Origin: Escherichia phage Rtp
Direction: 5' to 3' (one strand)
Length of the DNA: 46,219 nt
Sequence record: NC_007603.1
Part shown: piece after piece, positions 1-44,966 of the stretch
Numbering within the stretch: position 1 is the first letter of the stretch
Layout of the letters: each line of letters starts with the position of its first letter
Notes under the pieces: model-generated
Seen by the model: the letters and a program-made list of their open reading frames with translations, nothing else
Told to the model about the DNA's origin: nothing
Database searches by the model: none
Translations under genes and position numbers: made by a program

Positions 1-214
1 AGCAATATTGCTTCAGATGCAATGATGTTTTTGATTGTTGCGGGTTGAGCAATGAAGTGATGAGTGAGTGAATGAAAGATTGATGGACTATCATACAAGT
101 TGATTTTGATCCTAGCTGAGCCATTTTAAGCATACGCGTTATAAAGGTTATGCCGTGTAGATTAGTCCTTCCGCGGAAATTCATACACGCCGTACCACGC
201 CAAGTTACGCCATA

Positions 215-296
215 GTTACACTATAATATCTATATATAACAACCATTTAGTGTAATTATTATTATTATATATATTACTATGTATATCATGTATATC
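215..296. repeat. about 80-bp AT-rich repeat, copy A
   Basis: TTACACTATAATATCTATATATAACAACC...TTATTATTATTATATATATTACTATGTATATCATGTA aligns at roughly 85 percent with 28088-28170. Confidence 0.7.
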
Positions 297-476
297 CCCC
301 TTGCGGGGAGGGTCGATAGTTTTTCTATGAAAATGACAATTTCTATATATATAAGGATAGGCATATACCCTCCGCGTTTTCCGCGGAAATCCATCTACAG
401 GCAAATTACATGAGCTATAGCTGGGCTTGGGCGCCCAAGAGCGTAGACATTGCCAAATATAAACACGAGATAACAC

Positions 477-504
477 TTGATAACGCGTATGTATGTGGTA
501 ATAT
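477..504 (+). promoter_or_regulatory. sigma70-like promoter (TTGATA-16bp-TAATAT, TGn extended -10)
   Basis: TTGATA at 477-482, 16-bp spacer, TAATAT at 499-504 preceded by TGG; lies upstream of the first ATG with an SD. Confidence 0.45.
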
Positions 505-545
505 GGAATCACCTTAACGAAGGGCAACCAATCAGGAGTAATAAA

Positions 546-1064
546 ATGTCAGAACATAAAGCAGTGGTAAGTCTCGGTGAAGTGGTTCGATACATGGCAA
601 AAAAGGCCCTGTCTAACGATACGAAATCATTTTTGGTGCCGGTGCGCATGATTGCACAGCAAGTGTATGGACTTGATAAAGTGGAAATGACGAGGGTGTA
701 CCAGGAAGACCTAGAGCCTGGTGGTAAGTACCACATGAATAAACTTAAATCATCATACGTTTCAAACACGGTAAGTCGCATGCCTGAAATCAAGTCTGCT
801 AACGTCAGGGCTAGACTCTCAATTAAGGACGCAGAGTTTGAGGGGGAGGTGGTTAGATGCGCGGTGATCTCACTTGTGCCAGGAGCTATCAATAGTGGGT
901 CGCGCAATAAAGCAGAGGCAGAGAAGGAGGCGGCAACCATTGAAAGGTTCAAGGCTCGACTGCTCAAGCTGTCACCGAGCGTCGCTGGCCTGGAAGGCGA
1001 TGAACTTAAGGGGGCCGTGGCAATGATTAACGCCTATCAGGAAATGATTAAGGAGACCAACTAA
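546..1064 (+). CDS. hypothetical early protein (173 aa)
   Basis: ORF track 477..1064 trimmed to ATG 546, which has AGGAG 8 nt upstream; the 477 start lies inside the promoter. Confidence 0.6.
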   Translation: MSEHKAVVSLGEVVRYMAKKALSNDTKSFLVPVRMIAQQVYGLDKVEMTRVYQEDLEPGGKYHMNKLKSSYVSNTVSRMPEIKSANVRARLSIKDAEFEGEVVRCAVISLVPGAINSGSRNKAEAEKEAATIERFKARLLKLSPSVAGLEGDELKGAVAMINAYQEMIKETN

Positions 1065-1123
1065 TGTTTGATTTTACCGAAGAGAAGCTGACAGATGAGC
1101 AGGTTATGAGGATTGTAGAATGA
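1064..1123 (+). CDS. 19-codon ORF MFDFTEEKLTDEQVMRIVE, homologous to the N-terminus of the 42193..43776 protein (possible gene remnant or translated mini-ORF)
   Basis: Strong SD AAGGAG 8 nt upstream, TAATG overlap with upstream stop; 13 of 17 residues match MFDFNEDKLSVEQVMAI of the minus-strand P-loop protein. Confidence 0.3.
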   Translation: MFDFTEEKLTDEQVMRIVE

Positions 1124-1383
1124 AACGTTTAATGAAATGCATGACTATTATTGCGGCAATGGTTGCTCTTACTGGCTGCAAGAAGGCGTCGGAGGTTCAG
1201 ATTCAGTCAGGTGAGTTCAATGTGGAGCGTCTATTCACAGTGGATGGATGTACCGCCTACCGATTCCTAGATAACAGTAGAGCCGTCTACTACACAAATT
1301 GCCATGGCAGTACGCAGAGTGAGTACAAGTCAGGCAGGGTCATGAAACAAGAAACAGTTCAGACAGATCGCACGAATTGGTAA
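1120..1383 (+). CDS. putative lipoprotein (87 aa)
   Basis: N-terminal signal with lipobox LTGC (MKRLMKCMTIIAAMVALTGC); GAGGA SD 7 nt upstream of ATG. Confidence 0.6.
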   Translation: MKRLMKCMTIIAAMVALTGCKKASEVQIQSGEFNVERLFTVDGCTAYRFLDNSRAVYYTNCHGSTQSEYKSGRVMKQETVQTDRTNW

Positions 1384-1443
1384 AAGGGGATTCATCCTGA
1401 CTGGTATAATCCCCATATAAAAAACGAGAAAGGAAGTTAACGA

Positions 1444-1983
1444 ATGAATCAGATGTACACCATGATTAAGCATCAACTGAACACGGAAGCAATAAATAAG
1501 CCCGTATACGTGTTTGACTACGACGGCACGCTATCGGACAGCTCTCATCGACTTGACAAGCTGCCAGCAAACGACTTGCATCTCACGGAGTCATGGTCTG
1601 AGTTCAACCGATTGTCAATACGTGACGAACCTATCGAATCAACCATTCAGGTAATGAATAGCCTCTTCGACTCAGGCGCATTCATAATCATCCTAACAGG
1701 CAGGTCAGATGAGACGTGTGAGATTTCTACTCAGTGGCTTCATGATGCCGGAGCAAAATACAACGTGATGGTCATGCGCCAGGCTAGCGACAACCGAAAA
1801 GACACAGTTATTAAAGAGGAGTTTTTACGATACATTGGCTTGCATCGAATCACCGCCTCGTGTGATGATAGCCCAAATGTGGTAGAGCACCTAAGAGGCC
1901 TAGGTATTACCACGTATCAGGTATGTGACTATGGCGATAAACTACACACCGGACTCGGATCGCATGGCGTTCATCATAAGTGA
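1444..1983 (+). CDS. HAD-superfamily phosphatase (possible polynucleotide 3'-phosphatase / nucleotidase)
   Basis: N-terminal DxDGT motif (FDYDGTL) typical of HAD hydrolases; SD AAGGAAG upstream. Confidence 0.55.
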   Translation: MNQMYTMIKHQLNTEAINKPVYVFDYDGTLSDSSHRLDKLPANDLHLTESWSEFNRLSIRDEPIESTIQVMNSLFDSGAFIIILTGRSDETCEISTQWLHDAGAKYNVMVMRQASDNRKDTVIKEEFLRYIGLHRITASCDDSPNVVEHLRGLGITTYQVCDYGDKLHTGLGSHGVHHK

Positions 1984-2101
1984 CGATATACGAACATAAA
2001 TTCAGCAGCAGGGGTATTGATATGCTCCTGCACTATGTAGACGAAAAATACGCAAAGCTCATGCTTAAGACGCATGGCGGCACAATAGCGAGGATTAATA
2101 T

Positions 2102-2362
2102 ATGAGCAAGTACGACCGCAGAATCATTGGTATTGATGGCACGGTAACGACAGTAGATGTTTATCGTGTTCTTGAAGCTTTTGGCGTATCTGACCCAGCA
2201 ACGCAGCACGCGGTAAAGAAGATGCTTTGTATGGGGTTGCGTGGCCACAAAGATTACTTAACTGATCTTAATGACTCTATTGAGTCACTACAGAAAGCTA
2301 AAGAGCTTTACGGGCAGAAGATGATTCATGAATCGTCTAAATCAATCCAGGCTGGTAAATAG
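2102..2362 (+). CDS. hypothetical protein (86 aa)
   Basis: ORF with AGGA SD; its TAG stop is the first triplet of the palindromic cassette. Confidence 0.55.
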   Translation: MSKYDRRIIGIDGTVTTVDVYRVLEAFGVSDPATQHAVKKMLCMGLRGHKDYLTDLNDSIESLQKAKELYGQKMIHESSKSIQAGK

Positions 2363-2402
2363 CACGAATTGCTAAAACCGCTCCGGCGGTTTTAGTTATA
2401 GT
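2360..2402 (+). promoter_or_regulatory. palindrome-promoter cassette (TAGCACGAATTGCTAAA, 22 bp, TATAGT)
   Basis: TAGCA-N5-TGCTA palindrome at 2360-2374; TATAGT at 2397-2402; small inverted repeat AAAACCGC/GCGGTTTT in the spacer. Confidence 0.5.
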
Positions 2403-2431
2403 TAGTTAACACCAAACGAGAGGAAAGAGAA

Positions 2432-2524
2432 ATGAAGCAATACCCATCAAGTAATCACCATAACGGTCACATCATGCAGTTCTACCGCCACAATCTGAAG
2501 ACTAAGGGAGTATTTGGAAAATGA
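2432..2524 (+). CDS. small ORF (30 aa)
   Basis: ATG 2432 behind cassette leader SD GAGAGGAAAGAG; ATGA overlap with next gene. Confidence 0.4.
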
Positions 2525-42192: not shown

Positions 42193-43776
42193 TCACCCCA
42201 ATAGTCGTGGATTAACGTAAACTTTATCACCAATCAGGCACGTATAGTTTTTCTCATCAAGCATTGGCAGTAAGCGATCTTTAATCTTTGTCATTACACC
42301 AGCTTGAGCCTCAAACGGCTTAACCTTTCGAGCTGCCTCATACAATGAACGAATACCAACTACACCTTTCCCGTTCTTGCCTTGCTTGATCAGTATATCA
42401 ACCAGCTTGCTCATCTCAGCATGGTCGCCAGCGTGACCAGCAGCGTTAGCTGATGACAGATACGTCTTGCTCAGCTCCTGGAACATAATCACAGCTTCTT
42501 GCATGGTATCAAGTTCAATCTCTCTGGATTTCTGTGGACTACCGCCATTTGGGTTGAACCAGTTGCGCACAGTGTGAAGAACAGCTGCAATCCTGATGGC
42601 CTGCTTATCGAACTTACCCAACGCGCCACGTAACATTGTGTGTGAATACTTCCCGCCATCTGCAAGGTGAGGCTCCATCTCCTGACGCGCACGGTTGAGG
42701 TATTTCATCGCTGAGTTGCTCACTGTCAGCTTAACATCTTGCTCATTCATTATTTCATGAACTAAACGGAAGTAATCTGCCTTCAGCTCGCCATTAATTG
42801 GTTCGTATGTTGAGTTGCCATTCTCATCAACGAATACGCGCTCACCAAGGAATGATTTTTCACGAACCAAAAGGAAACGTTCAGATACACCGATACCACG
42901 CGCACCAGCATTCATGATGGCGTTGATTGTTTCATCCTGCGCAATTACAGAGATGCAACCCATAGCAACGAAACTCATGTTATTTTCTGCGTTGGCACGC
43001 GCGATAGATACGTTACCGGCATCCCATGCCTTAAGCACAAGTTCGCTGTTCGTTTTCTTAGAGCCATCACCATAGGTCATGCCAAGAAGTGAATTGACGC
43101 TAGTTGCTTCATCCGAGATTACAGCGAAGTTACCCTGTCGGTTGTTTATTCGCGCAAGACCTTCCGGAGTGGTATCTGACACTGGAAATACGATATCGCA
43201 CATCTTTTCCAGCTTTTCCTCTAAATCCTCTTTTTCCTCAAACAGCGCCGCCATCTCTGATGGTGACTTCTCCTGCTTCATCTCTTTTGATAATACAGAT
43301 AGTTTTGCCATGATCTTCTTGCGCTCACGCTTTCTCAATTCATTCAGTCGCTCAGTCTCAGCAATCATTGGAGCAATTGAAAGTGAGTTGATGGCTGATT
43401 TACCTGTCGATGGTGGTTGGCTTGTCACGACATAAAGCGAAGTTGGCTGCTGAGTTCCATGATACTCAACAGTAAAACGGCCCAGCATGGCAGCGGAAAT
43501 ACACCCCAGAAAGTGCATATAAGCTGAAGACTCAGGGAACTGAACAGAACGGGCAATATTGGCTGAAAGCTTACCAACAACATCAATGTCATTACCGAGT
43601 GAGATTACGGGATACTTGTCATTAGCCGCATCAATCTCGACTGGTGCTTTCCAGAATGATTGAGACTGACGATAGCCATTAGCATTAATAGCGACGCGCA
43701 GGGGTGGGAGGTTGTCTGCGGCAGCAATTGCCATAACCTGTTCAACAGATAGTTTATCTTCGTTGAAATCAAACAT
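42193..43776 (-). CDS. P-loop NTPase (putative replication / primase-associated ATPase)
   Basis: 527 aa; Walker A-like PPSTGKS; cassette promoter variant upstream; function not resolved. Confidence 0.55.
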   Translation of the reverse strand: MFDFNEDKLSVEQVMAIAAADNLPPLRVAINANGYRQSQSFWKAPVEIDAANDKYPVISLGNDIDVVGKLSANIARSVQFPESSAYMHFLGCISAAMLGRFTVEYHGTQQPTSLYVVTSQPPSTGKSAINSLSIAPMIAETERLNELRKRERKKIMAKLSVLSKEMKQEKSPSEMAALFEEKEDLEEKLEKMCDIVFPVSDTTPEGLARINNRQGNFAVISDEATSVNSLLGMTYGDGSKKTNSELVLKAWDAGNVSIARANAENNMSFVAMGCISVIAQDETINAIMNAGARGIGVSERFLLVREKSFLGERVFVDENGNSTYEPINGELKADYFRLVHEIMNEQDVKLTVSNSAMKYLNRARQEMEPHLADGGKYSHTMLRGALGKFDKQAIRIAAVLHTVRNWFNPNGGSPQKSREIELDTMQEAVIMFQELSKTYLSSANAAGHAGDHAEMSKLVDILIKQGKNGKGVVGIRSLYEAARKVKPFEAQAGVMTKIKDRLLPMLDEKNYTCLIGDKVYVNPRLLG

Positions 43777-44922: not shown

Positions 44923-44966
44923 ATAATACCGCATCCTTGCGATTCTGTTTTAGCAATTCGTGCTAT
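44923..44966 (-). promoter_or_regulatory. palindrome-promoter cassette (minus strand)
   Basis: Minus-strand TAGCACGAATTGCTAAA; 22-bp spacer; TATTAT; leader TTTCCATCGAAACGAAACAACG. Confidence 0.5.

Follow-up and report, generated by a model that had tools for sequence, protein, structure and literature searches.

The first early gene of Escherichia phage Rtp and the lipoprotein gene behind it are linked by a reading frame of only 19 codons (MFDFTEEKLTDEQVMRIVE; 1064..1123, + strand), which begins like a helicase gene encoded on the other strand at the opposite end of the map. This raises the question of whether the frame is a small gene, a stray copy of the helicase start, or the leftover of some other gene. 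We analyzed the entire 46,219 bp sequence (NC_007603.1; hereafter the window), which represents the whole genome of a T1-like phage (Drexlerviridae and, judging by its relatives, Braunvirinae). The frame is very probably the 5' remnant of a phrog_7327 gene at a mosaic junction in Rtp, fused to the leader of the lipoprotein gene and passively coupling rtp1 to rtp3.

The 19-codon frame and its likeness to the helicase start

The first early gene, rtp1 (546..1064, +), encodes a DUF7174 protein of 172 aa (PF23796, E = 3.7e-52; phrog_4841) that exactly matches CAJ42205 and forms a cluster of one. Its stop codon (TAA, 1062-1064) overlaps the ATG of the 19-codon frame at 1064 in the sequence TAATG, and the ribosome-binding site AAGGAG of the lost gene lies at 1050..1055 (+), 8 nt before this ATG. 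The frame ends with TGA at 1121-1123, which overlaps, as ATGA, the start codon at 1120 of rtp3 (1120..1383, +; CAJ42207), a gene for an 87 aa lipoprotein with the lipobox LTGC, assigned to phrog_6360 and weakly matched by DUF4884. The ribosome-binding site of rtp3, GAGGA at 1108..1112 (+), is located inside the frame, 7 nt before the rtp3 ATG. An initial annotation of this DNA had reported the strong AAGGAG site, the TAATG coupling, and the presence of the downstream Shine-Dalgarno sequence within the frame, and all three were read from the sequence as described. The encoded peptide of 19 aa is acidic.

Upstream of these genes, a sigma-70-like match (TTGATA-16-TAATAT with TG; 477..504, +) was found in a consensus scan and is a tentative promoter of rtp1, the remnant, and rtp3, matches of this kind being no commoner than in shuffled sequence. 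Downstream, rtp4 (1444..1983; CAJ42208), which encodes a polynucleotide kinase/phosphatase (HAD_PNKP), and rtp5 (2102..2362) were identified by exact protein matches. Because the GenBank numbering rtp1, rtp3, rtp4, rtp5 runs along successive positions, a feature named rtp2 should be annotated between rtp1 and rtp3; the 19-codon frame is probably this feature and, if so, already in the databases. No other ORF of at least 20 aa between rtp1 and rtp3 was present in the protein collection, and a literature search for rtp2 returned unrelated matches only. A 41-codon ORF (MTIYEHKFSSRGIDMLLHYVDEKYAKLMLKTHGGTIARINI) at 1980-2105, conserved and annotated in SU57, ZL19, and RobRod40, apparently received no number in Rtp, where rtp5 directly follows rtp4 in the numbering. 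An rtp5 homologue of 86 aa from phage BEK1-1 (QGH77221.1) is labelled "terminase large subunit", which is an evident mislabel; a similar label appears in the 2725-N35 record.

The gene resembled by the frame is located at 42193..43776 (-) and encodes a protein of 527 aa (exact match to CAJ42271) that was assigned by Pfam to DUF3987 (E = 1.6e-42, residues 81-430) and by PHROG to phrog_2373, "DNA helicase". With a Walker A-like QPPSTGKS at residue 120, it is indeed the P-loop protein that had been described at this position, although the distance to the frame across the window ends is about 3.5 kb rather than 3.4 kb. In an ungapped alignment with the first 51 nt of the helicase gene (43726..43776, -), the frame was identical at 39/51 positions (76%), at 36/45 (80%) over codons 1-15, and at 12 of the first 17 residues. 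The frame contained no DUF3987 domain or P-loop and spans only the equivalent of helicase residues 1-17.

The only point in favor of a spurious short ORF that resembles the helicase start by chance is the shortness of the match. When both strands of the window were scanned with the 51-mer, the runner-up reached only 28/51, and the expected number of matches of at least 39/51 anywhere in the window is 4e-9 (binomial), so that the similarity pointed out in the initial annotation is well above chance. The frame also has a separate homology to a whole gene family, as described below. A coincidence is practically impossible. An antisense role was considered and rejected, the remnant and helicase mRNAs being alike rather than complementary and unable to pair. 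As an inverted repeat, the two sequences (76% identity, longest exact run 11 nt) are too weak to argue for a role as a recombination substrate, and no inversion was seen in relatives.

The phrog_7327 gene of the relatives

Positions 1040-1125 were used as a query, and 72 phage records covered at least 80% of it, in each case spanning the boundary between two successive annotated genes. The arrangement of rtp1 end, TAATG, and start is conserved in these 72 records. In RobRod40 (L003, 3025-3549), JeanPiccard (L004, 3025-3552; bas02_0063), and SU57 (L001, 1005-1529; SU57_0002), the DUF7174 gene is directly followed, with the identical TAATG overlap, by a gene for a protein of 174-175 aa that matched the PHROG profile phrog_7327 with E = 2e-66. 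A full-length phrog_7327 gene was found by tblastn in 113 phage records, and in a large protein database the family comprises 326 clusters, nearly all of 173-182 aa, that are unnamed and carry no Pfam domain. Relatives do carry a conserved gene at this site, but it is larger than the frame and related to the helicase, and not an unrelated small gene.

The N-terminus of phrog_7327 in RobRod40, JeanPiccard, and SU57 reads MFDF(T/N)E(E/D)(K/R)LTDEQ(V/I)M.IAKQDGIPP, and the remnant fits the pattern MFDF(T/N)E(E/D)(K/R)LTDEQ(V/I)M at 15/15 residues; with its 19 codons, it lacks the length and the core residues of the family (R27, N33-G34-Y35, W42, and C115-L-I-G-D119). At the nucleotide level, codons 1-15 are identical to the phrog_7327 genes of RobRod40, JeanPiccard, SU57, and 2862V at 43/45, 41/45, 37/45, and 36/45 positions, respectively, and to four helicase genes, that of Rtp included, at 35-36/45. 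Codons 9-12 are CTGACAGATGAG (LTDE) in the remnant and in all phrog_7327 genes compared, whereas all four helicase genes have CTATCTGTTGAA (LSVE). The stretch 1040-1115 is 93.4% identical to RobRod40. Because the fragment is closer to phrog_7327 than to the helicase gene, carries the LTDE codons, and is preceded by colinear upstream DNA, it is shown to be an in-place remnant of Rtp's own phrog_7327 gene and not a copy of the helicase start.

A recent duplication that placed an inverted copy of the helicase 5' end at this site would account for the 39/51 identity in ATG-to-ATG register and for the run CAGGTTATG, which is identical in Rtp's own helicase gene and different in the phrog_7327 genes of RobRod40 and SU57. 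However, the remnant is nearer to the phrog_7327 genes of other phages (43/45 and 41/45) than to the helicase gene of Rtp itself (36/45), and its codons 9-12 are of the phrog_7327 type. In addition, the 24 nt upstream of its ATG, in which the ribosome-binding site and TAATG lie, run colinear to the phrog_7327 locus of the relatives and are unrelated to the DNA upstream of the helicase ATG (16/60). Such a duplication is extremely unlikely. The initial annotation had proposed a recombination scar or a duplication of the N-terminus of a distant gene: the scar was retained, with its junction at 1107-1115, whereas the duplication gave way to a remnant of phrog_7327, to which the identity is 43/45 and 41/45 as against 35-36/45 for the helicase genes.

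The likeness of the remnant to the helicase start is inherited from an old paralogy between phrog_7327 and the helicase, of which the first 50 nt or so are the best-conserved tip. In BLASTP comparisons, residues 1-45 of phrog_7327 aligned with helicase residues 1-45 at 69% identity (E = 4e-20), and residues 71-128 (58 aa) aligned with helicase residues 470-526 at 45% identity (E = 1e-15); the PHROG profile matches of the two families are reciprocal. Over the first 135 nt, the helicase and phrog_7327 genes of JeanPiccard and SU57 share 63% nucleotide identity, with 30/50 and 28/51 of the differences, respectively, at third codon positions. This identity and the preponderance of third-position differences indicate that the paralogy is old and has been maintained at the protein level. 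These alignments show phrog_7327 to be an old ATPase-less paralogue of the DUF3987 helicase that consists of the N-terminal 45 aa and the winged-helix-like part, without the P-loop core.

An AlphaFold (AF2) model of phrog_7327 was built from a 40-sequence alignment (pLDDT 82, pTM 0.69). In the model, residues 1-10 form a coil and residues 11-21 form helix 1, and a C-terminal helix is present that is extra relative to the helicase. Sequence searches of solved structures with the helicase and phrog_7327 gave nothing significant, and a Foldseek search of the phrog_7327 model against the PDB gave only weak winged-helix matches (MukE, kleisin, and E2F; E >= 0.02). The gene is encoded in the first early operon, at the map end opposite the helicase gene. 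Its product might act as a competitor or regulator of the helicase, or share a DNA target or a partner with it. This parent family, a widespread helicase paralogue without the ATPase core, is the most interesting item nearby.

The same gene has decayed independently in other phages. In T145P1 (Veterinaerplatzvirus, OZ035767; L006, 1752-1846), only the last 25 phrog_7327 codons are left (MRYSEEEVEVAIEFYRKAKSLLNGK) and the joint is a different one, with a TA(A/G)TAG microhomology linking the remnant immediately to the DUF7174 stop codon. In the vB_EcoS-2862V record (MK907276; L010, 1284-1810), codon 141 of phrog_7327 is an in-frame stop and the annotated product has 140 aa, while the part 3' of the stop is still conserved in frame. 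No trace of phrog_7327 was detected in ZL19 or in six metagenomic contigs. Since T145P1, 2862V, ZL19, and the contigs lack or truncate the gene, phrog_7327 can be dispensed with on some hosts at least, and the Rtp case is not the only loss. Natural knock-outs of phrog_7327 are thus available in Rtp, T145P1, ZL19, and vB_EcoS-2862V, and their comparison with intact relatives could address its function.

The junction and its mosaic surroundings

Window positions 1-2500 were compared with six relatives by blastn. Homology to the four phrog_7327-bearing relatives stopped at 1115. In JeanPiccard, SU57, and T145P1, it restarted at 1119 with the lipoprotein gene, and homology to ZL19, the closest relative of Rtp for the lipoprotein gene (95%), began at 1107. 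Together with the nucleotide identities to relatives, these alignments assigned 1064..1115 (+), codons 1 to about 17, to phrog_7327; four codons (R I V E) lie between the joint and the TGA of the remnant. The lipoprotein leader of ZL19 ends in ...AAAGAGAAAGTATTGAGGATTGTAGGATG, and base for base the same leader was present in six ENA/Logan contigs from different samples, which were sampled through the lipoprotein protein cluster. The GAGGA site is identical in ZL19 and all six contigs.

Both breakpoints and the origin of either side can be read directly from these alignments. The two sides meet in a microhomology, TGAGGATTG (1107..1115, +), that matches phrog_7327 (TGAGTATTG) at 8/9 positions and the ZL19-type leader (TGAGGATTG) at 9/9, with the consensus TGAG(G/T)ATTG. 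By a rough count, chance alone yields one 8/9 match when a leader of 25 nt is compared with a gene of 525 nt; the recombination therefore exploited an existing match. The nearest relatives are JeanPiccard and RobRod40 on the left (909-1115, 86-88%) and ZL19 on the right (95%), which makes the joint a mosaic boundary as well. Compared with JeanPiccard, Rtp is without 751 bp (L004, 3077-3827), which contain the remaining part of phrog_7327 and bas02_0064; compared with SU57, it is without 1312 bp. The joint thus reflects a deletion or recombination of 0.75-1.3 kb at an 8/9-nt microhomology.

The ancestral order, which is kept in many Braunvirinae, would have been an rtp1-like DUF7174 gene, TAATG, phrog_7327 (174-175 aa), at least one small gene, and the lipoprotein gene. 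Illegitimate recombination, either as a deletion or as an exchange between two phages, would then have fused phrog_7327, at codon 15-17, with the final 16 nt or so of a ZL19-type lipoprotein leader, so that the remaining phrog_7327 codons and all DNA as far as the lipoprotein gene were lost. On the right-hand side, a ZL19-type leader is the favored parent, being common (seven sources), in contrast to the unique Rtp joint. In the reverse order, ZL19-type DNA could descend from an Rtp-type joint, and the GAGGA site would derive from phrog_7327 codons 15-16 via a T-to-G change; this order would explain why the ZL19 leader is, by alignment, about 11 nt longer than the leaders of sister elements.

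A deletion that arose in the sequenced stock or during assembly, with wild Rtp carrying the full gene, would be consistent with a junction unique to the Rtp record and with a gene that is evidently dispensable. However, the two sides come from differently related lineages (86-88% JeanPiccard/RobRod40 and 95% ZL19), as expected for natural mosaicism and not for a deletion in a clonal stock, and a finished isolate genome with a clean microhomology joint does not bear the mark of an assembly error. A laboratory or assembly artefact is thus very unlikely.

The left arm of Rtp (window 1-2500) is strongly mosaic as a whole. The 5' two-thirds of rtp1 had no nucleotide-level match in the six relatives compared, and rtp4 is present in Rtp, ZL19, and the metagenomic contigs and absent at this position from SU57, T145P1, RobRod40, JeanPiccard, and 2862V. 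In the AT-rich non-coding left end, TTCCGCGGAAAT is found at 169-180 and 377-390, the second copy with an overlapping palindromic partner; there were 3 matches against 0.14 expected, and the motif may be a packaging or regulatory site.

A further motif, ATAGCACNWWTTNYTAAA, occurs 16 times in the window against 0.01 expected. Thirteen copies are on the + strand (2359, 3077, 3459, 4027, 6316, 8425, 16303, 21393, 29628, 33762, 35294, 37795, and 38478), and those at 44966, 45919, and 46160, in the leftward right arm, are on the - strand. Several copies begin exactly at a stop codon of a listed ORF, and about 20 nt downstream of the early-region copies come TAT(A/G)(A/G)TTACCCCATCGACAAC, a ribosome-binding site, and ATG. 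The element is probably a promoter or a terminator-promoter cassette, although its spacing does not match the usual -35/-10 pair. In relatives, the element is read through by ORFs such as MDRVV.YDYPI.N. A 22-codon ORF upstream of the lipoprotein gene of ZL19 (MDRVVSYDYPIDNKEKVLRIVG) was considered as a second in-frame remnant and rejected, as alignment showed that its 5' part is a repeated intergenic element.

Probable translation of the stub and comparison with known systems

Since the stub has inherited a strong ribosome-binding site and an ATG, the 19 aa peptide is probably translated. Ribosomes finishing rtp1 may restart at 1064 and, 19 codons later, at 1120. Translation of the stub would in this way passively hand ribosomes from rtp1 to rtp3, first at TAATG and then at ATGA, and the lipoprotein gene would thereby join the first early transcription unit. 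In JeanPiccard, SU57, and T145P1, the lipoprotein gene is ATGA-coupled to a real gene of 69-87 aa (phrog_13316), and in ZL19 it is located behind its own copy of a promoter-like repeated intergenic element. As the chance that the frame runs into the TGA at the lipoprotein ATG is one in three, the stop/start overlap needs no selection. The peptide itself is inferred to have no function of its own. When mapped onto the model of the parent protein, the stub would encode no complete structural element, only the coil and part of helix 1.

A genuine small gene, encoding a selected acidic peptide that perhaps mimics the helicase/phrog_7327 N-terminus or a leader that tunes lipoprotein expression, would agree with the intact strong ribosome-binding site, the ATG, and the exact stop/start overlap with rtp3, and the original authors probably annotated the ORF as rtp2, judging from the numbering. 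However, the ORF was absent from all other genomes and contigs searched. In IMG/VR, the junction string matched Rtp's own record alone, it matched none of the JGI metagenomes or 50,697 phage records, and no small ORF with an intact frame was detected among the related genomes and contigs examined. Moreover, the signals are inherited from the lost gene and the lipoprotein leader, so that selection is not needed, and the frame outcome has the one-in-three chance given above. The peptide corresponds to a coil and part of a helix of the parent fold, and folding of 1040-1160 gave no RNA structure signal (z = -0.88). A selected small gene is therefore very unlikely. Because the peptide keeps the conserved tip, with 12/17 residues as in the helicase, it might, if made early, bind a partner of the helicase/phrog_7327 tip as a micro-protein decoy or competitor, or, in a more modest form of this idea, be retained by selection because it drives early, rtp1-coupled expression of the lipoprotein, but this is highly improbable. 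The frame is better regarded as a gene remnant, and it may serve as a warning for annotators that mini-ORFs of the rtp2 type can be pseudogene fragments.

Among known families, the closest to the stub is phrog_7327, a group of uncharacterised Drexlerviridae early proteins that includes JeanPiccard bas02_0063, SU57_0002, IME253 gp21, and ESCO41 gp02. The stub shares with it the locus, the TAATG overlap, the ribosome-binding site, and the first 15 codons (41-43/45 nt in the closest members). In contrast to these proteins, the stub amounts to only about 9% of phrog_7327 and has lost the helical N-domain, the winged-helix-like domain, and the C-terminal helix; it is a fragment and not a functional member. 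With the DUF3987 (PF13148)/phrog_2373 helicase, it shares the N-terminal motif MFDF.E.KL..EQVM.I by way of the helicase/phrog_7327 paralogy. However, the helicase gene is on the opposite strand at the other map end, its identity to the stub is below that of the phrog_7327 orthologues, and the diagnostic codons differ.

The stub also resembles the coupled upstream ORFs of phage operons, both in its TAATG and ATGA overlaps and in the internal ribosome-binding site of the downstream gene. Unlike those ORFs, it lacks conservation and originated as a side effect of a deletion. Gene remnants left at mosaic junctions by illegitimate recombination at short microhomologies are familiar in lambdoid and other tailed phages, and the Rtp stub is a further instance of this phenomenon, an ordinary deletion scar. 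It provides a clean, base-resolved case in which a tailed phage lost accessory genes at a microhomology and a translatable stub stayed behind. Like other such remnants, it combines a sharp switch of nearest relative, an 8/9-nt microhomology, the loss of accessory genes, and a joint beside a gene boundary, and it differs from them only in staying translatable and in being stop/start-overlapped on both sides.
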